DNA of 63,987 nucleotides, filler included, from Aduncisulcus paluster (taxonomy: Eukaryota), in assembly GCA_024181965.1 (NCBI GenBank). It is 10 parts of 10 records of this genome, joined end to end, with 100 filler letters (N's around TTAATTAATTAA, not from the genome) between each part and the next. Parts side by side here need not be neighbours in the genome. Positions count along the whole stretch, not along the records: positions 4,102 to 12,753 come from BQXS01011384.1; 9 more parts are not named here. One strand, given 5' to 3'. Positions 4,002 to 62,165 of this stretch are shown piece after piece (position 1 is the first letter of the stretch; each line of letters opens with the position of its first letter). A model generated the notes under the pieces. The model had not been told where the DNA came from. It saw nothing but the letters and a program-made list of their open reading frames with translations, and made no database searches. Position numbers and translations under genes: made by a program.

Positions 4002-4101
4002 NNNNNNNNNNNNNNNNNNNNNNNNNNNNNNNNNNNNNNNNNNNNTTAATTAATTAANNNNNNNNNNNNNNNNNNNNNNNNNNNNNNNNNNNNNNNNNNN
4101 N
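4002..4101. other. Artificial scaffold linker N44-TTAATTAATTAA-N44; the same linker is at 12754-12853, 16339-16438, 29455-29554, 34108-34207, 47827-47926, 51932-52031, 57409-57508 and 61026-61125
   Basis: Identical 100-nt spacer with stop codons in all frames. Genes on either side are truncated at it. Confidence 0.97.
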
Positions 4102-4102
4102 T

Positions 4103-4288
4103 ACAGATGGAGCTTTTGATAGTACTTCCAAAAGAAATTCTTTGTTCGAGGAATCTTTGTTCGAGGAAGTTTTCCATGAAATCGAAGGAGAGAAAGCCAC
4201 CAGTGGTCACTCTCAAGGAGATTTGGCCACTGATATAGCTTTAGATGTTGATTTCCACACTGATCTTCTCTTGCCTCCGAGCTCTTCT

Positions 4289-4320
<32 letters not shown>

Positions 4321-7300
4321 CTCTTCCCACCAAAGATCACCCCTTTCCACCAAAGATCACCAAATATCTTTCCCCTCCCTTGGAATCCCATTTGACTCTC
4401 CATTTTCCCTTGTTTCAGACGTTTGTCATGATACCAAACTTGCCCATGCCTCCCTTGCTGTTCTAAAAATGGATATCGATGAGTATGTATGTGCTCAAGT
4501 CCCCAATGAATGGGATCTCCTACCCCCACCACCCGATGTTGTTGATCCCCAATCTGGTATGGACCCGTTGTCCGAGGACTCTCAGTCATATTACCTCACT
4601 TCTCATCCCGTTGCTTCTCTCCTTAACTCCCCAGAGAAGTTATCTTCCCCCACCTCTTTCCTCTCACACCATTCGTTACAAATCCCTGTGAAATTCTCTT
4701 CAACTGCGACTGATATTACATCATTTCTTTTCAATTCCTTTCCAGTTGTCCCTCACTCCTTATTGTTCAATACTGTGTTGCTTCTGAGCAAATTGGATGA
4801 TAACGAAGCAATTGTTCGTCTATATAGGGATATTAAGGCCACTGAAAAGGATATGAATGATCTTAGATCCAGGGCTGTAGAAGAGATGCTGGTGATATGG
4901 AAGAATGATATTGAAGGAAATATCATCAAAGAGCTAGAAAATGGAGCCATTTCCATCAGAAACAAAGAAGAGGAGGAGAAAATACACGATTTGATCAAAC
5001 TTCAACGAAAACGGGAAGCAATTAGAAGGAAGGAAGAGGAGGAAGAAGAAAAACGGAAAGAAATGTCAAGAAAACCACAAAAAGAATTGCAAGGAGAAAA
5101 AGAAGAAGAAGAAGAAGAAAGTATGAGAGCTGAGGAAGAAATAGAGGAATCGAGTGATATAAATATAAACGATATTGAGAAAGAGATTGAACAAGAACTT
5201 GAGAAACTGTCCCAAAATAGACAATTTGAATCAGAAGCTGAAAAATCAGAAGAAGTGGATATTCAAGACAACCAAACGCTTGAAGAAGAAGAAGAGGCAC
5301 AGAAAGGGGAGGAGGAGGAAGAGGAAGAAGAAGAGGGAGAGGAGGAGGAAGAAGGGGAGGAGGATGACGATGATGTGTATGTAGCTACTGGTCATTCTGA
5401 AGAAGTCGATGAAGAAGTTGATGTTGAAGTTATTGGGCATCATGGGATAGATATCCTTCCATTTGAACTAACTAAAAATCAAACAATATCAAGGCAAAGA
5501 AGAGGCAGAGGAAGAGGCAGAGGCAGAGGCAGAGCAAGAGGCAGAGGCAGAGGCAGAAGAAAATCTACTGACGCAACATTAGAGAGTTCCCTTCTCTCGT
5601 TTCCAGTTGAATCTGAACCCTCTTATTCTGCATCTTGCGTGTCTTTCTTTTCAATGCCCTTGCATGAATTTAAGTCATATTTGAATATGAAACTCCAGAC
5701 TTCACGAGCTTTGGTGGAATATGATATTGGAGTCATTGGGAAAATATGTCATAGTTTGTTAGTCCAAACTTCAGAAGGCGATGAAACGTCCTCCACAACT
5801 GACGGGCTGGGAGAAGAAGGAGAAGAGGGGACTCCAAGAGGATTTATTGAAAATTATCGGAATGAGGCAACCACATTACTAGCCTCTCTTTTCAAATATC
5901 ATTATGATTCTATGAAACAGAGAAAGAGCATTCTCCAAGATGTGTATCGGTACCCTAGTTTATATCCAAGAAGTATGAGTTCTTTCCATCTTTTTTCCTC
6001 AATTCAACAAATATCAATGTCCAAAAATATACCTCCAGCTCTAATTGCGTCCAGTAAGCGGACTCCTCCTCTGTTCTCCCTCATTAAAAGTGTTTCTGAG
6101 AGTTTCACATCCGCCATAGCCTCCATGTGTTCTTTTCTACTTGAAGCCTTGTGCCCTGAACTCTGCTCGTCAATCCTTAAGAGAGCCATAAATATTTTTA
6201 AGAAGGAAAACATGACTGTTCGTGTGTGCATTGGTCCTTCTAAATCAAGGCATATTTTCGTCGATGGATGGGATATCATCTCTGACCCTGAATCAAAGAA
6301 TGCCGGAGAAACTATCCCAATTCGTTCTCCTCTTTTGTCTGAAGAAAGTGAGTTCCCATTCAGATCATATGTGCTTCCCCGTGTTCTTGAGGAGTCTATG
6401 AAGTACAAGAGAGAGCATCTTGAGAATCCAAATGATTGCATTCATTATTCGGTCGAATCTATTCCCAACCATTCTCAGAATCGGTGTCTGCTTCTTCCTC
6501 ATCACGTCATGTCTCTCCCTGTTGTCACTTCAGCCATATGGCTACTTTTAGGAAGAGCAATTGAGCAGGGAGAAAGGAAAGAAGAGAAGGAAAAGGAGCG
6601 GGAAAAACTTATCACGATGGCTTCACAAGCAAACATAGCCACTCAATCTATTAATAGTCAAAGTGAAGCTAGAGATCAACAATTAACCTTGAACAAGGAT
6701 GGAACCGTCAATAGTAATAATGCCAATTCTGCTGCTGCAAAACAACAGAAGAAACGTAAGAAAATCCCGGGTCGGAAGAAAGATAGTTTACTTCATGTTG
6801 CCCAACGACCTCTCCCTCATATCGCTCCTACTCGTCTCGAAGGGTTATCTGTTTCCATTCCTTCGTTCTCTCTTCCTCCATCGTCTCTTGCACTGTCTTG
6901 CTTCGTTCGTGCTGTCGATGAATGCCGTGTGAACATCCTTGCCAGGTTATGCTGGGCAAGACAGCATGGAAGGAGTGGAAATTGGCTCAAGGGACTTAAA
7001 ATCCTCATGTGGATGGATAACGGAGAGGAAGAATCTTGTGATCTTGCACTCACTGAGACCAAATCCATCACAAAACGAACCTCAAAGTCTGGTTTGAGTG
7101 CTCATCCGGGAGCTGTTCGTTTGGACGGAGATGATATGGTCATGTATATTCCTCATGGAGAGGATATATCGAGCTTAAGCCAACTACCAGAGCCCCAGGT
7201 GTTATTTGGTGACAAGAACATCACGGATAAAGCGAATTCTCCTATCTCTGAGGATGCCAGTGTTGTGTGTTCAAAACTTGCATCTCATCCAGCTGTTGCA

Positions 7301-9286
7301 ATGCTTCGTTTGATATTCCTGTTGATTGTACATGCTTATGATAGGAAAAAGAAGTGGAACAAGTGGCGCGATGGTCTTGGAAAACGAAGATCGAGTACAA
7401 TTTCTCCTAGTAGCCCTTCTTCTCCTTCCCAGAGTTCTCCTTCAGTCCATGGTGGTTCTGAAACCAGAGTGGCTCGTTCGAATGATTTTCTTTCCAAACT
7501 TTCTTCCAAATATGCCCGAATATATCGGCATACGTATGATATTGCCTCTTCTGTCCTCGATTTCTTTGAGGAATGTGCTGGTAATGATGATATCGATTGG
7601 TATAGTGAGTTTTACACTGACAAGGAAAGACGGAGAACTATTGGGGAATCAAATTATCCCACATCTGCTCCACCACCGCCTCTTCCTCCTTCCACATTCT
7701 TCAGCTTGATCTCTCCTCTCGCTTCTGTTTTCTTCTTCTCTTTGAGATTTCTCTGTTTCTCAAGACTTTCTGCATCTAATTTGCGAACTATCCTTTCTCT
7801 TGAACGGCGGTACGGTAGCATCATTACTCGTTTGGAGGGTGCTGGAATCTGGGTTGGAAATGAACGATCCACTTCATCCCTCCCCTATTTGATGTCATCT
7901 TCACTCAATTCGATCAACTTACCGCCCCATATCACGAGTGCAGCCTTTGCTCCCGCGTCACTAAGTGCAGAATTATCCCTGATCACTCGTCCTGCCTGGT
8001 TCATGCTTGGTTCGTTCGACAGAGCTGTGGCACATCCTCCCTTCACATCCACACTCAGTGCCATGTCAATCGAGTGGGGTGTCTGCCTATGTGATATCAT
8101 GTCAAGGTATTATATTCGACAGGGTAGAATAGAGGAGAGTAATCTTATTCTTAACTATCTCATCGCCCTTGAAACAGTGCAAAAGAGTATCTATTTTAGG
8201 AATGTTGAGAAACGAGTGAAAGGACGTATGGTCACAACCACAATGAAACTTGGAGACTACATTGGGGGAATGTCTTTTCTGAGAGATACGGCTGTTCGTT
8301 ATCCGCACGACATTGCTCTCTGGCAGATGTTTGCTACTGTTACAAGACGAGGATTTGGATCATCATACAGTCGTCAATTGCTTCGACTTGTAAACAAAAA
8401 CATGAAATCTGTCGGTTTATTCCTTATTTTGGCCAGTCAGGCTTATCGTCGTGGATCTCATCATTTGTGCATCTCTCTCCTCTCTTCTCCTCTCGGGGTA
8501 TTCCCTTTCCAGCCTTCATTCCTCCTTATGCGAGCCCTCTGTTATCTTGCCATTATTACAAAGAAAAGTACCGTTTCACGCGAAAAGGCATTGGTTAACT
8601 TCCTTGCTGCATTCTCGGATTATATCGATGTTCGTGGGAGCTGGTCAAGCGAGGTAGTTTTTAATCTAGCACGCGCTCTCCAGCAGATTGGAATGGTTTC
8701 GCTTGCGATTCCCCTGTATCGGGCTGTTCTTCACTCCCCATCAGCATCTGTCTCGCTGTATTGTGTGTATGATGCCCTTCGTGGCGAAGAGAGTGTTGGA
8801 AGTGAATTGACGATCACCGAACAGCACGATGCTCGCGGGATGATGGTACCACTGTCTAATTCGAGGGGTCCATCGTATGAGTGGTTTAATGTGCAAGTGC
8901 GTATGATCGATGACACACCAGGGTCTGGAGATGGTGTGGATATTGACACCTCTTCCGATGTTGGAAAGGGGCGTAAGAAGAAGAAAAGGAGTGGTTTGAA
9001 ACAGAAAGGGATGCGAAAAGTTGGTACCGATATGACGGGTGCACTCATGTTGAAGGACGCTTTATTTAACCAAGAAAGGCGGAGGAGACGAAGGACTCCA
9101 CCGAGAACAAGCCAAAGTGCATCCGTCAACATCCACTCGACACAGGACATGCCATTCATGGTTGACTTCAGGGAAGGGTTTGCTTGCGATCTAAGATGGT
9201 GTGCGGCCATCAACTTGAGTTCGATATATCAGGACTGTGATGCATATGATCTTGCCGCAGAGGTTGTGAATCAGTTCGTTATTTGA
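4103..9286 (+). CDS. GTF3C3: Pol III transcription factor TFIIIC TPR subunit (Tfc4/tau131/GTF3C3)-like, 5'-truncated
   Basis: C-terminal TPRs SEVVFNLARALQQIGMVSLAIPLYRAVL and DLRWCAAINLSSIYQDCDAYDLAAEVVNQFVI match the GTF3C3 C-terminus (ESFYNLGRGLHQLGLIHLAIHYY; DLRRDIAYNLSLIY). Acidic N-terminal region. Frame is open from 4103. Confidence 0.75.
5501..5557 (+). repeat. Imperfect (AGAGGC)n hexamer microsatellite encoding an RG repeat
   Basis: agaggcagaggaagaggcagaggcagaggcagagcaagaggc... translates to RGRGRGRGRGRARGRGRGR. Confidence 0.9.
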
Positions 9287-9297
9287 CCAGTGTGATG

Positions 9298-9903
9298 GTT
9301 AATCCAACTGCTAATTATCACACCAGAACGTGTCAAGCATACATTTGTGTGTGGATGGAACATGAATTGGAATAAATCTCAGGAATAACAAGAGTGGCGA
9401 GAGCTGCAGGATTCAAGACATCATGACACCATTAATCACCTATTCCATTTCATCGTCTGGCAGTTTTGCAATTCTACATTTCATCTCAGAAGATTCAGTA
9501 TCGTCACTAGAGAATGACTCGGATGCATCCTCCTTGAATATATGTTCATTTGATGCAACATGTAACGATAATTTCGGTGTTGGGGGATGANNNNNNNNNN
9601 NNNNNNNNNNGTTAATCCAACTGCTAATTATCACACCAGAACGTGTCAAGCATACATTTGTGTGTGGATGGAACATGAATTGGAATAAATCTCAGGAATA
9701 ACAAGAGTGGCGAGAGCTGCAGGATTCAAGACATCATGACACCATTAATCACCTATTCCATTTCATCGTCTGGCAGTTTTGCAATTCTACATTTCATCTC
9801 AGAAGATTCAGTATCGTCACTAGAGAATGACTCGGATGCATCCTCCTTGAATATATGTTCATTTGATGCAACATGTAACGATAATTTCGGTGTTGGGGGA
9901 TGA
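9298..9903. repeat. Gap-flanking duplication 9298-9590 = 9611-9903 (unmerged assembly overlap)
   Basis: 293-nt copies on either side of the 20-N gap at 9591-9610. Confidence 0.9.
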
Positions 9904-12752
9904 CGAGAAGAAAGAGACAATTTGCTTTGATGGGTCGAAACGGAAGCTGAAATCGGTGCACTAGAGCTTGATAACTCTATTGACTCGGAAGAAGAGGAAC
10001 TACTCGAGGAAGTCTGGGGTATTGTATCCCTTGAGGGGATCTGACGAGAAGTCATTAAACGCTGAGGATCTTGATTATGAATGGAAATGGGAGATGAACG
10101 ATATTCATCAAAGCTTGAAGAGGTATGACCCCACGCCCTTCTATATTCACTGCTTACGATAGAATCAGATGAATCTATCCATAGCTTCCTAATTTCACTT
10201 GCTGTAGAATCTATCGAGGAATTTTCCAAGGTGTTTGGTTGTCCATACATTATATCAGTTCCATTTCTAAACAAATTTTTCATCGATTTTGGCATTGGAA
10301 ACATTTTTTGCTTTTTCTGGACAATTTCATCAATGGATGGATATTCCCACCCTTCTCCAATCTTTGGAAGAAGATGCATAATGGATTGAACTTTATCACG
10401 GGCTTCGTGGACTTTCATGCGTTCATCAACATTAAACCTTGTCAATCCTTCGAAGATTTCATTCAAACAAGAATATACGGGATTGAATTCGCCAGCTCCA
10501 ATCGTTTTAAGGGTTCCAAAAAGGGGACTTTCGGAGATTGTTGGAAATGAATTTCTTTTAAGAATCAACATAAGATTTTCGACATACTCACCAGTACTAG
10601 CAAAAAATTGAAGGGAAGGTATTTGAAGGAGCGGATTATAACCGAAAAATAGAGTGAGGATAGAAATTCCAAGAGAGTGGGCATCACTCATTTGACTATG
10701 CAACCCTCGTAGAGCTTCATAGGAGTTGTAAACAAGAGTTCCACAAAAAGAACGTTTTGCTTTTGAAGCTGTAGCCTTTTCAACATCTTTCCTAGAATCG
10801 GAAGAAGAATCAACGAAGCTCCTGGAAAACGACGACGAAGAGATGGAATCCTTGATTTGGACAAGACCCAAATCTGCGAGAACAACAGCACATTCTCCAT
10901 CTTTGGGATCAACACGGATGAGGAAATTGTCAGGTTTGATGTCTCGATGAATAAGCTTCTTCTTTGCCGTGAACACATCATCGAGACATTCAATCATGCC
11001 AACACACAGGGCAGCAACTTTCACGGGGTTCAGTGTCATGGGGTCAAACAAAGTGGGGTCTTCATCTTCATCTTTTGAGGAAGCGTCAGAATCAGATTCT
11101 TCGTCATCCTTCGCACTCACATACTTGCCATCGGCACACCAACGCTTGGCAAACTCATTCACACTGCCTCCAACACAGAATTCCATCAAGAACCCATAAA
11201 CACCCTTCATATCGGAATCAAGCAGGTCAAGGATATCCAGAGGACGTGGGATGCGGTTGAAACACTTGGGATTCAAAAACAACTTTTGTTGCATCTTGAA
11301 CTCTTTGCGACATTCACTCATAACTCTTTTGTCAGGAATCTGATTCATTTTTTTCAAAATACAATAAGGCTCGGAAAGATCGTCAACTTTAACAAGAAAA
11401 ACTTCACCATATCCTCCTCTACCCAAAATACACAACGGTTTGGGAATCGAAGGATGTGGTAAGTGTGTGGGGATATGATTAGATTTGGATCTATCGCCAA
11501 TGAAAAAAAGAGAAGTGAACAAAAAAGTCTGATATTCTTCAAATCTTTCTCCCAACACTTCAATCTCACATAAAACGATATTGCGTAGATCAATAGCAAG
11601 GAAATACCATTCATATTCATATTTAGGTTTAATGAATTTATACCTCTTGGATATTTTCTTTCCATGAGAATCAGATAAAGTTAAAAATAGAGAAAGAGAC
11701 CTCTTATCCCTCTTCAAACAAATATATGTTCCTTTAACATGGCAAGGAGAGGAAAATGGAGAGAAAATATGAGAGAATTTCGCACTAAGCTCTCCATTAA
11801 ACAGTTTCTTGGCATTTTGACTCTTATGATTCTCAGATTTCCAACTCATGGAATCATCAAATGCTTGAACATTATTAATTGAAGGGTATATGATTGAAGG
11901 ATCATCACGTGGGATGGGAATAGAGTTCCGACCAAATGATTTTTTATCACCTTCCACTATAAACTTGGCTTTTATAATTGGGGTGATTAATTTCCTTTTC
12001 ATTAGAGCATACTTAGGGTCAAAATCAATTGTTTGGTTCGGCTTTTTGAGATAGGGGAAAATATACCAATATGGAATTGACAGAAATTTCAAATCAGAGT
12101 ATAGAAAATCAAGATATTGCCCTGGGAAACAGCGATAGATGGAATAGATAATGCCATACAAAGAGAGAATAGCACCAAAACTTGACGTAATATGACCCTT
12201 CCAACCAAGTTTACATTCACATGGACTTTGATTCTGAATTGTAGTTGTTGGAATTTTTTTACACAATTTTTCATATGGATCGAACATAAAACCGTCATTA
12301 CACTCATCTAAAACTACTGAATTAAAAATAGAATCCTCTATATCAGAAATAAATTTTTGCCTTCCCTCACATGTCCTATATTTCAACTTGTTTTCATCAA
12401 TCAGAGCTTCTTTACACTCTCCAGTCGGCATGTCAAAGTAATATCCCTTCCAGCACTCAACATCCCAAAAGCCAGAATCCACTTCTCGACACACTTGATG
12501 CGACGAGAAAGAGACGGGATCGTCACACTCACACCTTTGATCAGCAGACGAGAGCAGAAGCGAAGAATCGGTGAGATGGGTGAAATGGGCAAGCAACTCA
12601 CGGCGGACATTGTCAACATCACAGATATTGTTACCACGGAGATCAAGGAATCGCAAATTGTCACGGGGGAAAATGGCCTCCGTGATGAGAACAGAGACAT
12701 CAGAGATGAAATTGTAGGAGAGATTCAATGATTCGAGACGGAAAGGTCTGGT
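9753..12752 (-). CDS. Receptor-like Ser/Thr kinase: LRR - Cys-rich - putative TM - unnamed domain - kinase; 5'-truncated
   Basis: LRRs (LESLNLSYNFISD, LRFLDLRGNNICD), Cys-rich CWKGYY and CKLGWKG, hydrophobic FGAILSLYGIIYSIY. Kinase motifs LGRGGYGEV, ILKK, MEFC, HRDIKPDN, DLG, GTLVYNSYE, SDAHSLG. Confidence 0.85.
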   Translation of the reverse strand, partial: TRPFRLESLNLSYNFISDVSVLITEAIFPRDNLRFLDLRGNNICDVDNVRRELLAHFTHLTDSSLLLSSADQRCECDDPVSFSSHQVCREVDSGFWDVECWKGYYFDMPTGECKEALIDENKLKYRTCEGRQKFISDIEDSIFNSVVLDECNDGFMFDPYEKLCKKIPTTTIQNQSPCECKLGWKGHITSSFGAILSLYGIIYSIYRCFPGQYLDFLYSDLKFLSIPYWYIFPYLKKPNQTIDFDPKYALMKRKLITPIIKAKFIVEGDKKSFGRNSIPIPRDDPSIIYPSINNVQAFDDSMSWKSENHKSQNAKKLFNGELSAKFSHIFSPFSSPCHVKGTYICLKRDKRSLSLFLTLSDSHGKKISKRYKFIKPKYEYEWYFLAIDLRNIVLCEIEVLGERFEEYQTFLFTSLFFIGDRSKSNHIPTHLPHPSIPKPLCILGRGGYGEVFLVKVDDLSEPYCILKKMNQIPDKRVMSECRKEFKMQQKLFLNPKCFNRIPRPLDILDLLDSDMKGVYGFLMEFCVGGSVNEFAKRWCADGKYVSAKDDEESDSDASSKDEDEDPTLFDPMTLNPVKVAALCVGMIECLDDVFTAKKKLIHRDIKPDNFLIRVDPKDGECAVVLADLGLVQIKDSISSSSFSRSFVDSSSDSRKDVEKATASKAKRSFCGTLVYNSYEALRGLHSQMSDAHSLGISILTLFFGYNPLLQIPSLQFFASTGEYVENLMLILKRNSFPTISESPLFGTLKTIGAGEFNPVYSCLNEIFEGLTRFNVDERMKVHEARDKVQSIMHLLPKIGEGWEYPSIDEIVQKKQKMFPMPKSMKNLFRNGTDIMYGQPNTLENSSIDSTASEIRKLWIDSSDSIVSSEYRRAWGHTSSSFDEYRSSPISIHNQDPQRLMTSRQIPSRDTIPQTSSSSSSSSESIELSSSSAPISASVSTHQSKLSLSSRHPPTPKLSLHVASNEHIFKEDASESFSSDDTESSEMKCRIAKLPDDEME

Positions 12753-12853
12753 CNNNNNNNNNNNNNNNNNNNNNNNNNNNNNNNNNNNNNNNNNNNNTTA
12801 ATTAATTAANNNNNNNNNNNNNNNNNNNNNNNNNNNNNNNNNNNNNNNNNNNN

Positions 12854-13360
12854 TATCAGTTCTCTTTCCACTTCTTTCAGGCCGATCATAATGTTTATCG
12901 CTGTCATGATGCTTCTCATCAGCATGCTCTCTGTCGATCGCAGAAGAAAAAAATGGGGAATGAAGGTCGGAAGAGAGAGGAGGAGGAGAAGAGGAACGTT
13001 CCATTCGTTTCCTTCTTCTCTCTTCAACAACTGTTTATCCTTTTTCTCCTGCCTTCTCCTTCTTATCTCTTGTTCTCTCAAAATCACCAGAGGATCAACA
13101 ATAGCTTCTTTATCTTTAGATGTAAGTGGCTCTTGTGACATTATCGACTCAGAAGAATCCCTCGCAGATTGAGCAGAAGCACGATCGATATCAGTTCTCT
13201 TTCCACTTCTTTCAGGCCGATCATAATGTTTATCGCTGTCATGATGCTTCTCATCAGCATGCTCTCTGTCGATCGCAGAAGAAAAAAATGGGGAATGAAG
13301 GTCGGAAGAGAGAGGAGGAGGAGAAGAGGAACGTTCCATTCGTTTCCTTCTTCTCTCTTC
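12854..13360. repeat. 172-nt direct repeat, 12854-13025 = 13189-13360
   Basis: Identical copies offset by 335 nt (out of frame) at the scaffold end. Confidence 0.85.
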
Positions 13361-14068
13361 TCGTTTTTGTTTAATTTGAGCTATTCTCTTCTCTCCATGC
13401 TCAATTTTTTGTTTTTGAATGGGTGAATCGGAGGAAGACTTCTTCATTTCTTTCATTTCCTCGTCCAATTCAGGAATTTGCATTATAGCCCATCTGAACG
13501 CCATTTTTTCATGCATAACCCTGGCATTATCATTTCTATTGCCACCTATAGCACATAAACGATACCAAGGGAGAGTGTCCGGACCATGGGAGGCCCTAGC
13601 TATGCTATAAACACATGATTCTGCATCCAAGAGTGGATGTCTATATCCAACATCTTGATAGACAGAGGTAAATGCTGGAACACCAAAGAAAAGTGACCGA
13701 TGCTTCACTTTGGATGAACAATTGTCTGTTCCGTTTTCAAAATCAATTAAACAAATATTTCCATCTTTTCTATTGATCATGATATTTCGGGGATGAATAT
13801 CACCATGAGAAATTCCATAACGTGCAAGTTCAGCGATATATATGAGAGTTTTGTAACAGACAGAACGAAAAAACATCGTTTTGGGAGAAGATCCGGGTTT
13901 CCAGTAATAATGTGATAAATCTGCATGAGTTGTTGCAATGTTTATATAATGCAACTCCCCATTTGAATTTGAAACAAGTTCAGGAGTAAATAAGCCCTTT
14001 TTACGGACCAAATTGGTTATTCGCTCTTCTTGTTCTGGGTTTCGTGAATATTTTGAAAACAATGACAT
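12854..14068 (-). CDS. Divergent CK1-like protein kinase without a Gly-rich loop; 3' end truncated or misassembled
   Basis: HGDIHPRN, LIDFE, GVPAFTSV...DAES...LPW resemble CK1 HRDIKPDN, LIDFG, GTARYAS...DDLES...LPW. In-frame TGA five codons upstream of the ATG at 14068. Confidence 0.65.
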
Positions 14069-14411
14069 TATGGTAGTGAATCAGCAAAATATTTGTTTTT
14101 TGACTGGAACTATTTATATAATCTTGATATTGGAAAGCAAAGGAGTTCAATTTATTTCTTGTCTTAAGATAGAAATTAAAGGAGATGAATTGTCAAATAT
14201 TTGATATATAATGTTAATTTTGAGTTGATTTCTTCGGTTTAATTATGTTGTAACGATTGATGAAAGTCGTCAATTGCAAAATGGCTTGGATCATTTCAAA
14301 GTTCGTATATTAGTTGTTTGGATAGTATTTTTCCATTCAATTTGGTATCCTATTTAAATTTGATTTCTTTTGATAATCTTCAATATATGTTATATCCCTT
14401 TTCAGATAAGA

Positions 14412-16064: not shown

Positions 16065-16438
16065 CTTGCAATGGATTTGCATTGAGAGAACCATCATGCT
16101 TGTCCAAAGAAGAGGAGGAGGAGGGTGGGAGAGATCACGAATCATCTCGTGTTGGGGATCCTTCTCGTGAGAGGAAGTACACAACACTCGGGAGAATAAA
16201 GACATAAAGTCATCTCGACAATGCATCCCGTAGGTCTCGTTTTTCACTTACACTGCATTGGATGAACACTCAGTGTGACAGGCTGTCCGATGAACAACAA
16301 TAAATATCAAATAGTATTCCATGAGAGTCTCATGAGAGNNNNNNNNNNNNNNNNNNNNNNNNNNNNNNNNNNNNNNNNNNNNTTAATTAATTAANNNNNN
16401 NNNNNNNNNNNNNNNNNNNNNNNNNNNNNNNNNNNNNN

Positions 16439-29454: not shown

Positions 29455-29555
29455 NNNNNNNNNNNNNNNNNNNNNNNNNNNNNNNNNNNNNNNNNNNNTT
29501 AATTAATTAANNNNNNNNNNNNNNNNNNNNNNNNNNNNNNNNNNNNNNNNNNNNA

Positions 29556-34107: not shown

Positions 34108-34207
34108 NNNNNNNNNNNNNNNNNNNNNNNNNNNNNNNNNNNNNNNNNNNNTTAATTAATTAANNNNNNNNNNNNNNNNNNNNNNNNNNNNNNNNNNNNN
34201 NNNNNNN

Positions 34208-47826: not shown

Positions 47827-47926
47827 NNNNNNNNNNNNNNNNNNNNNNNNNNNNNNNNNNNNNNNNNNNNTTAATTAATTAANNNNNNNNNNNNNNNNNN
47901 NNNNNNNNNNNNNNNNNNNNNNNNNN

Positions 47927-51930: not shown

Positions 51931-52031
51931 TNNNNNNNNNNNNNNNNNNNNNNNNNNNNNNNNNNNNNNNNNNNNTTAATTAATTAANNNNNNNNNNNNN
52001 NNNNNNNNNNNNNNNNNNNNNNNNNNNNNNN

Positions 52032-57408: not shown

Positions 57409-57508
57409 NNNNNNNNNNNNNNNNNNNNNNNNNNNNNNNNNNNNNNNNNNNNTTAATTAATTAANNNNNNNNNNNNNNNNNNNNNNNNNNNNNNNNNNNN
57501 NNNNNNNN

Positions 57509-60500
57509 CCAAGTGCTGTTGAACCGACTGAGAAAAGACCTGGGCCGAATGTGATGTTAAGGAATAGACTTCAACTTGATGACCAAATGGGCTTTGCTAC
57601 CCCCAGTTTGAATGCCAAGATGCTTGGAACTGGTGCTACATCATCCAATCCTGATCAACGTGGTGCTTTTAACATTACTCCTCACCTTAAAAAGTCAAAA
57701 CCTATTGATACGATTGCTGAACATGACATTATCTCCCTTCTTTTTACCCACATGCATAGTATCTCCAAGAACTCACGTGAAGATCTCCGGAATATTCTGA
57801 ACAAGAACACTGGCATCCTCAAGAAGAAATTCTTTGGAACTGGGGAAGAGTCTGCAGTCTCATCCGCTCTGAGTCCACGCGGCGACCGTCCTTCCGTGAC
57901 ATCTATGTCCTCTGTATCAGAATCCAAGGGAGATCCTCTCATCACAATCGATGTTGCAGGTGCTCACGAAGAGGTATTGCTCAAATTAGGTGAGATTAGC
58001 CGCGATATCTGTAAGGAAATTGCTGGATTGTATGATAAAGAGGAACAGGATGCTTGTTCTCGTCTTAGTTCTCTGCAAACCTCCCTTGAATCCCTCATCC
58101 TTGACCAAGAAGCAAGCACCGAAGATCTTGTGTATGCCATCAAGATTATCGGCAAAGCCAATCAAGATGTCAAGAGAGATATTCTTATTGCTGAAATGTT
58201 GAATGAATCATACGCTCTCTTGTCCGCTGCTGATTGCAGAGATATGATTAACAATCCACCGGACAAGATGCTGAATACAAACTTGGATAACGTGAAGATA
58301 CAACTCACTGAAAAACATGAACTTCTGAAAACCAACTTTGTTGCCCTTTCAAATCTATTATCTGATGCCAACAAGAAGCTCAGTGACAATGCTTTGAGAT
58401 TAATTGAGGAATGGAAGACTAAACGCCCTGAAAATCCAAGAAGTGTTCCCCACGATGCCATTACAACCTGTGATACATTCCATTCTGCCTGTTCTGCCAT
58501 GATTTCGAGCTGTATCGAACTTGAAGGCGGATGGACTTATTTGTCCTCATGTTCCTTATCCACTATGCCTGTAAATTCTTTGACCCAGCACTCAATCTCA
58601 GCCAAATTGAATGAGTTACTCGACGATGCTGCTCATTATCGCGCTGTTTGGCTCGATGTGAAGAAAGCTTACGATAAACGTGAGATCATTGGCGATAAGA
58701 TCTGGCATTCAATCAGCGCAGATGAGATTAAGGCTGGTCTTGGTGAAATTAGAACGTTATTCTCTACTTTCCCTGCTACAACAACCTCTGAGGAATGTTT
58801 CAGACATGCTGAAGCCGTTGTTAATAACTTATCTTCACTCCATGTGACTCTTTGTGCTCTCAAGGAGTCATTCATGAAGAAAAGGCATTGGATCTTACTC
58901 TCAAAACTGACAGCAACTCCTGAACTTGCTGAATATGATGGCAATTCACTCACTGTCGAACGTATGTGGCATGTGCTTGGTGGATGCAAAGGAAGCAAGG
59001 GAGATTCTCATGCTCAAGCGGTCATTATCAAAGCTCAGGGAGAATTCGCACTGGAACGTTTTATGCGAGGCGTTGAACGATTCTGGAGTGTTGTTGAATT
59101 CGAGTTTACCGAGGGTTCTGTAACCAAAGGTGGAGTTCATGTGCGTTTGATCAAAAATTGGGAAGAACTGAGTGCCAAGTTGGATGAGGATCTTGCTGAT
59201 ATTGGAAGTATGAAGAACTCTCCTTACTATGCCGAATTCAGGAAAGAGGCCACTGAGTGGGAAGAAAGGTTGCAATCATACAGCGAATTGTTCGATCTGT
59301 GGGCCGAAGTGCAGCGTAGATGGCTCCATCTCCAATCTGTGACAGATGCCCTTTCTTCTACTCCAGAACTCAGAGAAGAGGCTCAATCATTACGACAGAG
59401 CAATGCTACATTTGTGCGCTATATGAGTACCACATGTGAATACAAATTGGTACAGACAGTCGGTGTGGAAATGAACCCTGCTCCAGAATATCCTCTTTTG
59501 AAAGGCATTGAAGAGCTTGGGAATAGACTCAAGAAGGTGCAACAGGCCTTGGGTGCCTTTTTAGCCAACCAACGTGCTATTTTCGCTCGTTTCTTCTTTG
59601 TCGGAGACGAGGATCTCCTTGAGATGCTCGGAGCTGTGAATGACGTTAGACGCTTACAACGTCATATGCAGAGTATGTTCGCAGGCATCAGCAGTCTTGT
59701 TGTGGAAGATATTGATGGAGTTGAAACCAAACCAGCGAAGCAGAGTTCAACCAAAAGACAATCGAAGAAACAAGAGAAAGATGTGTCGGCAGAAGAGAAG
59801 AAGAATATATTGCAACAAATCAGTGCTTTGGCCTCATCTGAAGGGGAGATTCTTCCATTGTGTAATCCAATTCCAACTCATGGATTCAAACAAACTCATC
59901 AACTCCTTTCATGTGTTGAAGGCGAGATGAGAAGGAGTTTCCGTGTCCATATGCATTCTTGTATACAAGACCTGAGGAAAGTTACCAAGGAAATGGGAAT
60001 TAAAGGTAGTGGATGGTATGATGAAGCAGGATCCAAGAAGACATCATCAGAATCTCCAGCTATCGAGGGTAGTTCTGAGTTATCTGCCACTCTTCCAATG
60101 TGGTGTGTTTCCCATCTTACCCAATGCTGTGTGGTAGGTGTCCAAGTGCGTGTCGTGGAGTGTGTTGAAGAGATGATGGAAAAAGAAGGAAGCAAAGGAG
60201 TTGAATCTGTGAACATATGGGTCAGAAAGATGCTTAGTGTATTGGCTGATCCTCTCCCTGGAGAACAAGATGATACTGCTACAAGTACTGACGGAGAGGA
60301 TGGAATCGAAGAAGAAGCAGAAGAGGAGGAAGAAGGATCTGCTTCAGATCATAAGAATAAGTCTGTATCTAGTGTCCCTCCATCATTGCTTAGGAGACGT
60401 CGTCAACTTTTATTGACTGAGCTCATTCGTCTCCGTGATTTGACTGATCGTTTGTCTGTGTCCATGAAAGAAACTGAACTCTCCTCAAAACAATCACAAA

Positions 60501-61025
60501 AATCATCTGAAGATATTGAGAAAGTTCAAATCCCATTTATGTGGCAGGCACAAATGCGTCACTATCTTATTGAGCCTTCCAAATGTGTGAATTATAATGA
60601 AAAAGAATTCGAGGTCAAGGAATGGAAGAAAGTTCCCGGGTCACAATCGTTGTTCGATCACATTGAAGTCACCAACGCCACTGTCCATGACTATCCAATT
60701 GTGGCTGTGAGAGTGGCTGATACAGAATTCACTTATGGTTATGAATGGTGGGGTTCTGCTGATAGATTGGTTCAAACCCCACTGACTGATAAATGTTTCC
60801 TTATTTTGACTCAAGCACTGGCTCAAAGAAAAGGAGGATCACCGGCTGGACCGGCTGGAACAGGTAAGACTGAATCTGTGAAGATGCTTGCCCAACACCT
60901 CGGAAGACTCTGTCAGGTTGTTTGTTGTGATGAGAATTTCGACGCCAACGCTGTGTCTCGAACTCTGAGTGGGCTCTGTGCTTGTGGAGCCTTTGGATGT
61001 TATGATGAATTCAATCGTTTGGATG
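57509..61025 (+). CDS. DYNC1H1: Cytoplasmic dynein heavy chain (probably dynein-1), linker region plus start of AAA1; both ends truncated
   Basis: AQGEFALERF, MKNSPYYAEF, WAEVQRRW, FFFVGDEDLLEMLG, YGYEW, RLVQTPLTDKC, Walker A GPAGTGKTESVK, GCYDEFNRL. Confidence 0.88.
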
Positions 61026-61126
61026 NNNNNNNNNNNNNNNNNNNNNNNNNNNNNNNNNNNNNNNNNNNNTTAATTAATTAANNNNNNNNNNNNNNNNNNN
61101 NNNNNNNNNNNNNNNNNNNNNNNNNC

Positions 61127-61189: not shown

Positions 61190-61580
61190 CTGATCCTTCA
61201 TGTCATCGTTTCCACAAGGATCGAATACAACTTCTTTCCTGATAACAATAATATTGTATGAACCATTACTTCCTGTCATGTCTTGAGATATGATGGATAC
61301 CATGTGTATATTGTCACTTTCATGTTTATATCGCTGTATTGTCAATAATGTCAATAATGTCTTAGTACGCCTTATTTGGAGAACAAATGTGTTTACAAAA
61401 TAAATAATTTATTATCATGTATGCATATTAATAATGATAAGAAACATCGATTTTGGATATTATTGTTCTCTCCCAAGACAATTGTAAAAATGTGCTTTTC
61501 CTTGCAATTGGAAGTTTATTGGTGTTTATTATTCTACTTAATTTGATATTGGATAATCCATAGTTGTGTTATTGTTTGTG

Positions 61581-62165
61581 ATGAGAATTATTGGCAAATG
61601 TATTGAAGATATTGGAACTTATTGGGACAATGACAAAGTGTTAAAAGGCCCCTACCCAATTGGTCATCCAGATCTATCTGAAATTGATGGATCCAAAGCA
61701 TATGGGGATTATCATTATGGTGATAATCATTCTAGTTTATTGCAATTATTAAGAGGTGAAGATTCGATCTTTTTCTATCCCAATTTACATCTCCCATTTA
61801 ATTTACGACATTATCTCGGTAAGTTTGTTGTAAGTCAGCATAGTTTTCCTCATGGAATCAAAGATTTCAATGCCACATTCACAACATCTGATGGAAAGAA
61901 GATTACAAAAGAATATCAAATGGGGGAGATAACACCACGGCATTATTTCTGGCAAGAATTCCCAATAGATCTTGATAATATTATTTCTTGTGATATTCAT
62001 GTTATATCGTCATGGGATGGAAGACAAGAAATGATTTATTTGGATGGCATTCGATTTGTGATTGACAAGAAGCGAGAGATAATTTTAGCCGCTAAAGAGC
62101 TTGTCAGAGCTGAACTTGCAACCATTGAACGATTATCGATGTTGCCTTGGTCTGAAGAAGTATAG
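61581..62165 (+). CDS. Stand-alone member of the unnamed domain family also found in the 9753-12752 kinase
   Basis: FTTSDGKKITKEY...YFWQEFPIDLDNIISCDIHV vs kinase LSDSHGKKISKRY...YEWYFLAIDLRNIVLCEIEV. Confidence 0.75.
   Translation: MRIIGKCIEDIGTYWDNDKVLKGPYPIGHPDLSEIDGSKAYGDYHYGDNHSSLLQLLRGEDSIFFYPNLHLPFNLRHYLGKFVVSQHSFPHGIKDFNATFTTSDGKKITKEYQMGEITPRHYFWQEFPIDLDNIISCDIHVISSWDGRQEMIYLDGIRFVIDKKREIILAAKELVRAELATIERLSMLPWSEEV

Follow-up and report, generated by a model that had tools for sequence, protein, structure and literature searches.

A probably convergent LRR receptor-like kinase of Aduncisulcus paluster with a new, apparently species-restricted intracellular sandwich domain

Plants use leucine-rich repeat (LRR) receptor kinases as their main surface sensors. 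In the Fornicata, which include Giardia and its relative Aduncisulcus paluster, the NEK kinases of Giardia have ankyrin repeats as their interaction modules. The LRR receptor kinases have had at least four independent origins and are found in plants, oomycetes, Monosiga, Chlorella, and Ectocarpus; the accessible part of that survey (Dievart et al., PMC3268121) names no excavate or metamonad, with 0 occurrences of "excavat", "Giardia", and "Trichomonas". According to the available excerpts of two other papers, 198 of 278 Giardia kinases are NEKs (quoted in PMC3916229), and LRR proteins and Homeobox proteins are the most expanded superfamilies in the free-living Hexamita, similar to Trepomonas (PMC11787283). 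A. paluster is a free-living, bacterivorous, microaerophilic flagellate, and its genome paper is silent on kinases (PMC9933649). In addition, no report of receptor kinases in Metamonada or Fornicata was found in the open-access literature searched. Here, we describe a kinase gene on the minus strand at 9753-12752 of a 63,987-nucleotide stretch of A. paluster DNA (assembly GCA_024181965.1), which we call the window. Its product, P0001, is best read as a convergent LRR receptor-like kinase with a new, apparently species-restricted intracellular sandwich domain.

The gene lies on the contig at 4102-12753 (8652 bp) of the window, and its frame runs through 999 codons without an internal stop before it reaches a stop codon. 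From the N-terminus to the C-terminus, the following parts were recognized:

12567..12752, minus strand: 2-3 remaining LRRs of the SDS22/internalin type (residues 1-62, LESLNLSYNFISDVSVL...LRFLDLRGNNICDVDNV)
12192..12545, minus strand: Cys-rich region (residues 70-187) with a C.GYY.D..GEC motif and, next to the membrane, CECKLGWKG, which resembles epidermal growth factor (EGF) repeats
12123..12191, minus strand: weak hydrophobic segment, candidate transmembrane helix (residues 188-210, ITSSFGAILSLYGIIYSIY and then RCFP)
12045..12122, minus strand: aromatic-rich juxtamembrane linker (residues 211-236)
11457..12044, minus strand: one copy of a putatively species-specific repeat domain, predicted as an N-terminal helix and a beta-sandwich (residues 237-432)
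10263..11438, minus strand: divergent eukaryotic protein kinase (residues 439-830) with an acidic insert at ~540-575 and a Ser-rich activation segment
9756..10262, minus strand: C-terminal tail of low complexity, rich in Ser (residues 831-999; 45 of 169 residues are Ser)
9753..9755, minus strand: stop codon, TAG on the coding strand

The order of these parts and the intact catalytic motifs are seen directly in the frame. The reading to which we give a probability of about 0.55 is that cassette exchange in a family specific to A. paluster produced P0001 as a functional type I receptor kinase. An earlier note on this DNA had described a receptor-like kinase with the order LRR, Cys-rich region, membrane segment, and kinase. 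The same order recurs on other contigs in four paralogues (P0003, P0040, P0045, and P0053).

The kinase domain was matched by the Pfam Pkinase model (PF00069) over residues 442-783, with 53.8 bits against a cut-off of 31.7 (E = 2.5e-14). Its catalytic set is complete (G444/G446/G449 of the Gly-rich loop, K467 of beta3, E484 of alphaC, H602-R603-D604 as HRD, N609 of the catalytic loop, and D627-L628-G629 in place of DFG), and these residues, DLG included, are invariant in a 12-sequence alignment of the family. Thus, DLG is not a quirk of P0001, and the earlier description of intact motifs with DLG was confirmed. Judged from these residues, the kinase looks active. The best solved relative was CDPK1, with E = 4.5e-6 for the single sequence and 7.6e-9 for the 12-member profile. 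This profile matched 184 solved chains at E <= 1e-3, and the best 60 of the 184 included CDPK, HRI, Cdc7, NDR, RIPK1, Aurora, MEK1, and CK1 at 25-38 bits; no structure of a plant receptor-like kinase (RLK), IRAK, or NEK was among these 60. In addition, a Protein Atlas search with the kinase returned generic Pkinase clusters and one PDIK1L-like cluster. In these comparisons, nothing points to RLK/Pelle or NEK for the family kinase. Since the best solved matches show no RLK/Pelle affinity, the analogy with plant LRR-RLKs made earlier holds for the architecture only. The best reading is that the receptor kinase arose in the A. paluster lineage, where it would be convergent with the plant LRR-RLKs and not homologous to them.

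To describe the family, relatives were drawn from protein databases. The search with P0001 gave 91 proteins at E <= 1e-3 among 7999 scored candidates. One of them is the window's own protein, and the other 90 are all named A. paluster. Indeed, all relatives that were identified came from this species, which agrees with the lineage-specific system proposed before. By BLASTP, residues about 257-432 of P0001 match each paralogue several times. The hidden Markov model (HMM) built for this repeat covers residues 237-439 of P0001 with 190 bits; the kinase starts at 439, and the sandwich ends about 10 residues upstream of it. The beta-rich domain of ~160 residues that had been seen at ~11495-11990 is real, and it is somewhat larger than first drawn (residues 237-432, 11457-12044). 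With the same HMM, 211 sandwich copies were counted; 65 of the 91 proteins have at least one, and the longest tandem array has 8.

The 106 full-length copies were reduced to 53 (one per protein) and then to 38 by removing those >75% identical, and 25 of the 38 together with the window copy made up alignment A1. None of these 26 copies matched a Pfam family of the galactose-binding-domain-like fold, F5_F8_type_C (PF00754) included, at E <= 1; the sole Pfam matches were to four unrelated families, with one member each and a best E of 0.055. The AlphaFold2 (AF2) model obtained from A1 has two helices and a beta-sandwich, with a predicted local distance difference test score (pLDDT) of 89.4 and a predicted template-modelling score (pTM) of 0.83. 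The best solved match of this model in Foldseek was human APC10/Doc1 (E = 3.4e-4), one of 4 matches at E <= 1e-3. Furthermore, of 48,161 chains compared by VIA-align, 64 reached Z >= 8, with the top matches tied at Z 10-11. For instance, the top match was 7jnb_A (Z 11.1, root-mean-square deviation (rmsd) 4.0, 138 aligned), and CBM32 and F5/8 type C domains reached Z 10.8-11.1. APC10 ranged over Z 10.4-10.8 (5a31_L: Z 10.4, rmsd 3.7, 140 aligned) and IFT25 over Z 10.1-10.6 (8ruy_R: Z 10.6, rmsd 2.6, 115 aligned), and the matches also included the DOC domains of HECTD3 (Z 10.0) and HERC2 and the discoidin domain of muskelin. Thus, the fold class is known and the sequence family is new: according to the model, the sandwich has a galactose-binding-domain-like fold (CBM32/discoidin/APC10-DOC/IFT25). 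The Protein Atlas leads for the sandwich had values of 0.89-0.91, with recognition below the mark. A two-copy complex prediction scored 0.00 without controls and has no bearing on self-association.

A profile search of 1.84 billion representatives, each standing for a cluster at 50% identity, found the sandwich in 181 proteins at E <= 1e-3 (154 at E <= 1e-10 and 108 at E <= 1e-30), so at least 181 protein clusters carry it. Up to 15 matched stretches were counted in one protein, and P0093 has 11-15. The clusters that were identified are A. paluster in 20 of 20 cases, which suggests that the sandwich is restricted to this species, although these 20 are mostly the weakest of 150 listed and the other 161 clusters could hold other organisms. 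One of the 20 proteins came from a transcriptome-derived set. In addition, a further sandwich copy was observed on another contig of the window at 61557-62162 on the plus strand, in an open frame of 202 aa (E = 1.4e-17 with the family HMM), and no kinase was detected beside it on that contig.

A census of architectures was made in 235 proteins, in which P0001 was counted and its duplicate P0002 was left out. Four features were scored: the ecto module (phmmer with residues 1-187), a membrane segment with a Kyte-Doolittle 19-residue mean (KD19) >= 2.0, the sandwich, and the kinase. The results were as follows:

Sandwich only: 117 of 235 proteins, many of them fragments
Sandwich and kinase: 59 of 235 proteins
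Ecto module only: 20 of 235 proteins
Kinase only: 19 of 235 proteins
Ecto module, membrane segment, and kinase: 3 of 235 proteins (P0040, P0045, and P0053)
Ecto module, membrane segment, sandwich, and kinase: 1 of 235 proteins (P0003)
Ecto module, sandwich, and kinase, with the membrane segment below threshold: 1 of 235 proteins (P0001)
Other combinations, polytopic-membrane kinases included: 11 of 235 proteins
None of the four features: 4 of 235 proteins

The ecto module and the kinase therefore occur together in five of the 235 proteins, on five contigs; the membrane segment is clear in four of them and weak in P0001. Receptor-type members are rare yet recurrent. The sandwich adjoins the kinase in 64 of the 235 proteins, and 59 of these 64 have neither the ecto module nor a segment with KD >= 2.0. 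Thus, the sandwich is most simply taken as a cytoplasmic module. The unnamed juxtamembrane domain of the earlier note is not special to a receptor; instead, it is the repeated hallmark of a large and mostly membrane-less kinase family. Other fusions of the family kinase were also observed. In P0074, P0079, and P0086, it is joined to polytopic membrane regions (more than 20 hydrophobic segments in P0074), and in P0057, it occurs with a poly(ADP-ribose) glycohydrolase domain (PF05028). These fusions indicate that the kinase family samples many N- and C-terminal partners.

The frame of P0001 is still open at base 12753, where the contig ends and a linker begins, and thus the gene is 5'-truncated. 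Contigs from Logan extend past 12753 by 1027 nt (run X1) and 1207 nt (run X2), so more of the ectodomain exists. LRRs and a Cys/EGF-like region had been reported before, and both are present; the truncation had been missed. The visible LRRs follow the short pattern L..L.LS.N.ISDVS.L and do not fit the plant-specific 24-residue consensus. The best Pfam LRR match of P0001 was LRR_4 (E = 2.5e-4), with 21.6 bits under a cut-off of 27 bits. In addition, residues 1-177 are ~40-50% identical to A. paluster proteins with Pfam LRR_4, LRR_1, or LRR_6, and the LRR paralogues are named "ANP32-like" by their sources. Residues 74-180 contain 10 Cys, an even count, with CECKLGWKG at the end; no Pfam EGF match was found in P0001. 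The order of LRRs and then the Cys module is the same in P0040, P0045, and P0053.

Searches with the ecto module added 26 proteins (549-1749 aa); each of them is labelled partial, and P0003 is the only one with a Pfam kinase. They also found nine proteins of 1750-4995 aa, none of which has a kinase and seven of which are partial. Nearly all of these proteins are cut by short contigs, and so "kinase-less" LRR-Cys proteins cannot be counted reliably. The long paralogues carry the LRR+Cys supermodule up to 7 times, and several of them begin with signal-peptide-like stretches; together, these two features fit an extracellular location. One of the LRR-Cys proteins, P0241, is complete (1989 aa), and by eye a motif of the kinase C-lobe seems to stand at its end (…FCVGMLMFSMFAGK…). 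P0241 was not matched by the family kinase query, and its end may be that of a very divergent kinase or pseudokinase.

Several observations weigh against P0001 being a membrane receptor, and most of them concern the membrane segment. The stretch ITSSFGAILSLYGIIYSIY (residues 188-206, about 12135-12191) has a KD19 of 1.37, which bears out the "modest" hydrophobicity noted at ~12135-12190. This value is less than the 1.6 of a rule of thumb and less than the 1.44 of a buried kinase helix of P0001 itself. The equivalent segment scores 2.22 in P0003, 2.34 in P0040, 2.24 in P0045, and 3.45 in P0053, and by eye, four positions that are hydrophobic in P0003 are polar in P0001. On the Wimley-White scale, a segment of equal or greater hydrophobicity occurs in 20 of 42 paralogues presumed to be soluble; on this scale, which did not separate membrane from buried segments, linker 211-236 is the second most hydrophobic stretch of P0001. 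The linker had no BLASTP match at E <= 1e-3 among the collected paralogues. Furthermore, the membrane segment is not helical in a low-confidence AF2 model of residues 170-831 (24 alignment rows, pLDDT 60, pTM 0.37, kinase N-lobe 30-50), and the N-terminus of P0001 is off the contig, so a signal peptide cannot be checked. In P0045 (WFKKHKKTCNSRK) and P0053, a basic run directly follows the helix, as expected if the N-terminus is outside and the kinase inside. Taken together, the segment of P0001 appears to be homologous to genuine membrane anchors and weakened in this copy. The locus might be real and the copy no longer a membrane receptor, with its segment eroded and its product mislocalised or decaying as a young mosaic of a fast-turnover family. 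The low KD19 beside that of P0003, whose ectodomain is 95% identical, and the non-helical segment would fit such decay, as would the divergent sandwich copy (190 bits vs mostly 200-320 for full-length copies, and <= 46% identity) and the many partial, fragmentary members of the family. However, the 999 codons are free of stops, every catalytic residue is retained, and CECKLGWKG is kept although P0003 has lost it. Moreover, marginally hydrophobic helices can insert into membranes, and FGAILSLYGIIYSIY consists of 15 consecutive uncharged residues. We consider decay unlikely. It is more unlikely still that the sandwich is a lectin-type (CBM32/discoidin) carbohydrate or lipid binder rather than a protein-docking module. 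In that role, it could hold the kinase at the inner membrane leaflet or on cytoplasmic glycans. The CBM32 and F5/8 type C domains at the top of the VIA-align matches, the F5/8 type C clusters among the Atlas feature matches (0.89-0.90), the binding of some discoidin C2 domains to phosphatidylserine membranes, and the position of the sandwich beside the membrane segment in P0001 speak for a lectin. Nevertheless, cytoplasmic protein-binders tie with these domains on Z (APC10 10.4-10.8, IFT25 10.1-10.6, and HECTD3 DOC 10.0), and most family members lack a membrane anchor, with arrays that reach 8 copies in the first 91 proteins and 11-15 matched stretches in P0093.

The gene is also a patchwork of similarities. 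At both ends, the closest paralogue is P0003: identity is 95.5% over residues 1-177 and 98% over the last 60 residues of the tail (940-999), which match the end of P0003. In contrast, the kinase (residues 440-830) has 79% identity to P0018 and about 55% to P0003, and the sandwich (residues 257-432) has at most 46% identity to any other copy. In the kinase tree, P0001 joins P0018 (Shimodaira-Hasegawa-like approximate likelihood ratio test (SH-aLRT) 98) in a clade with P0014 and P0057 (98), and P0003, P0040, and P0045 lie elsewhere, among non-receptor kinases. This was a quick IQ-TREE analysis of 55 near-full domains with SH-aLRT without bootstrap and with a midpoint root; domains matching <330 of the 392 query positions, such as that of P0053, were left out. 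Two origins would fit the mosaic similarity: an exchange of cassettes between paralogues, or a wrong join made by the assembler. In the latter case, the ectodomain and tail of a P0003-like gene would have been joined to the sandwich-kinase of a P0018-like gene. Here, too, some evidence weighs against the receptor: besides the mosaic pattern and the separation from P0003 in the tree, the de Bruijn graph of the Logan contigs breaks at 12227-12256 and 9968-9997, a 293-bp duplicate stands unmerged at a scaffold gap, and the assembly is Illumina-only (PMC9933649), all of which fit a mis-join of paralogues as well. However, contigs from another assembler cross the point near residue 210 (window ~12125) where the likeness to P0003 ends. 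The X1 contig (918 nt, 11339-12256) has 0 differences and the X2 contig (1045 nt, 11212-12256) has 1 difference, and both bridge residue 166 in the Cys region, the membrane segment, the sandwich, and the kinase N-lobe, with ~130 nt on the ectodomain side and ~790-910 nt on the cytoplasmic side. These two Logan runs come from one sample, possibly the one behind the window's assembly, and their independence is thus one of assembler only and not of data. The bridging contigs argue against a mis-join at the key junction between ectodomain and kinase, and the chimera that the earlier note had named as a refutation is disfavoured there; the 3' junction is bridged by no listed Logan piece. All in all, an assembly chimera seems very unlikely to us. 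In another X2 contig, 7 other letters replace 187 nt of the Ser-rich tail (9997-10185), so that the frame is kept with a net loss of 180 nt; in the adjoining kinase end, 9 of 187 nt differ (~95% similar), and the 3' end is shared. This short-tail contig implies that at least one near-identical paralogue or allele exists. An intron at this joint was ruled out by the 7 inserted letters, the ends CT..TT on the coding strand, the in-frame 180 nt, and the 9/187 differences. No Logan holder is recorded as RNA, and X2 is only guessed to be RNA; its cover was missing in 1 of 30 bins, to which we attach no interpretation.

Under the receptor reading, two modules, each amplified in A. paluster, would have been joined into a single-pass receptor-like kinase. 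Outside the cell, an array of LRR and Cys-rich/EGF-like supermodules, only the last of which is on the contig, would bind a putative extracellular ligand, and a marginal hydrophobic helix would anchor the protein in the membrane. Sensing of bacterial prey or symbionts, as the earlier note proposed, would be a speculative role. Inside, one sandwich copy would be followed by the divergent kinase and then the Ser-rich tail. The sandwich may dock proteins, as DOC, IFT25, and muskelin do, and bring substrates or scaffolds to the kinase. Binding of the ligand would then alter the kinase output, and the Ser-rich activation segment and tail may be sites of phosphorylation or docking. By origin, the ectodomain and tail would be of the P0003 type and the kinase of the P0018 type, as expected from cassette exchange. 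More tentatively, and at somewhat less than even odds, A. paluster may hold a signalling toolkit of the new DOC/discoidin-like sandwich, which would be undetectable by sequence in other species, a new branch of unclassifiable active kinases, and LRR-Cys modules, whose cassettes are swapped by recombination and occasionally yield receptor kinases. If true, this would provide a diversifying repertoire of surface sensors for a bacterivorous anaerobe.

The draft genome is Illumina-only, was assembled with MaSuRCA into 25,863 contigs with an N50 of 4.6 kb and a BUSCO score of 40.4%, and has a predicted proteome of 15,316 proteins (PMC9933649). Nine linkers, which carry stops in all six frames, show that the window is ten concatenated contigs, so adjacency across a linker is meaningless. 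There are also seven 20-N runs, which are scaffold gaps. The linkers and the duplicate at one of these gaps are located as follows:

4002-4101, 12754-12853, 16339-16438, 29455-29554, and 34108-34207: N44-TTAATTAATTAA-N44 linkers
47827-47926, 51932-52031, 57409-57508, and 61026-61125: the remaining four N44-TTAATTAATTAA-N44 linkers
9298-9590 and 9611-9903: duplicated 293 bp, 293/293 identical across a 20-N gap, an assembly artefact

The duplicate covers the end of the kinase gene, from the final 49 codons through the stop to the 3' untranslated region. It is probably an unmerged contig overlap and leaves the coding sequence unaffected.

At 2-2908 on the plus strand, the window contains a gene for an LRR + EGF surface protein (teneurin-like EGF, Pfam E = 3e-5) that is open at the window start. 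It has a strong membrane segment (KD 3.22), a tail of ~185 residues, and no kinase, and so kinase-less LRR-Cys proteins do exist, as had been claimed. Its likeness to the ectodomain of the kinase gene holds for the order of LRRs and then C.GYY.D..GEC; the similarity itself is marginal (BLASTP E = 0.006, 27% identity over 142 aa), and the gene lies on another contig. Thus, the suggested pair of an RLK and a receptor-like protein is not supported by these data. A variant surface protein or a Giardia-type cysteine-rich protein was considered for this gene and rejected, since only EGF and LRR Pfam families matched. Three other frames were observed. The convergent neighbour of the kinase gene (4142-9283, plus strand) is a 1714-aa frame with Ser/Glu/RG low-complexity runs and no Pfam match. 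The frame at 12854-14080 (minus strand) is small and cut by a contig end; it has a catalytic-loop-like HGDIHPRN motif, weakly matches the profiles of APH, choline kinase, Kdo, and Pkinase (E = 1.4e-5 to 6e-4), and may be an atypical small kinase. On another contig, 57509-61024 (plus strand) is a dynein heavy chain fragment (DHC_N2 E = 9.7e-76, AAA_6).

The comparison with known systems can begin with the sandwich. In its modelled fold, it is like CBM32, F5-8 type C, APC10/DOC (APC/C, HECTD3, HERC2, and CUL7), IFT25, and muskelin (Z 9.3-11.1, 115-140 aligned, 2.6-4.0 A), and like DOC, IFT25, and muskelin, it would be cytoplasmic. However, it has only 4-15% identity to its structural matches and no Pfam membership, and unlike the known members of the fold, it has an extra N-terminal helix and a PIPRDDP motif. 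Long tandem arrays fused to a kinase are not known from the CBM32, discoidin, DOC, IFT25, or muskelin families. The gene thus led to an uncharacterised family of at least 181 clusters with a putatively species-restricted sandwich, usually in tandem beside a kinase.

As in the Giardia NEK expansion, a large part of a fornicate kinome belongs to one amplified, species-specific family with repeated interaction modules. Unlike the Giardia NEKs, the A. paluster kinases have no NEK among the best 60 solved matches, their accessory module is a beta-sandwich and not ankyrin, their catalytic residues are invariant in 12 aligned members, and membrane-anchored forms exist. The transmembrane kinases of Entamoeba histolytica (EhTMKs), according to the abstracts of PMC2880585 and PMC2211552, are likewise a large, protist-specific, single-pass family with Cys-rich ectodomains and many truncated copies. 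Both families belong to bacteria-eating phagotrophs, and some EhTMKs have been linked to phagocytosis. However, no sequence relation between the two families was seen (90 of 90 named relatives are A. paluster), and EhTMKs, according to those abstracts, are not known to carry LRRs or an intracellular sandwich.

The plant LRR-RLKs differ from P0001 in three respects. The LRRs of A. paluster are of the short SDS22/internalin type and are followed by Cys-rich EGF-like repeats, a sandwich stands between the candidate membrane segment and the kinase, and no affinity of the kinase to RLK, Pelle, or IRAK was detected among the best 60 of 184 solved matches. Nevertheless, the likeness to the LRR receptor kinases of plants and other lineages, as described in the accessible part of PMC3268121, extends to the presumed order of extracellular LRRs, a single membrane segment, and an intracellular Ser/Thr-type kinase, and also to lineage-specific expansion, domain reshuffling, and kinase-less LRR membrane proteins in the same genome. 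A case in this free-living fornicate would carry the list of LRR receptor kinase origins to Metamonada. If the toolkit reading is true, LRR receptor kinases would have arisen independently once more among eukaryotes, in addition to the four or more origins of the 2011 count, and for the first time in Metamonada. The value of the finding is comparative and hypothesis-generating: in parallel with the NEK expansion of Giardia, the family exemplifies how domain invention, amplification, and cassette exchange may build signalling complexity in protists.

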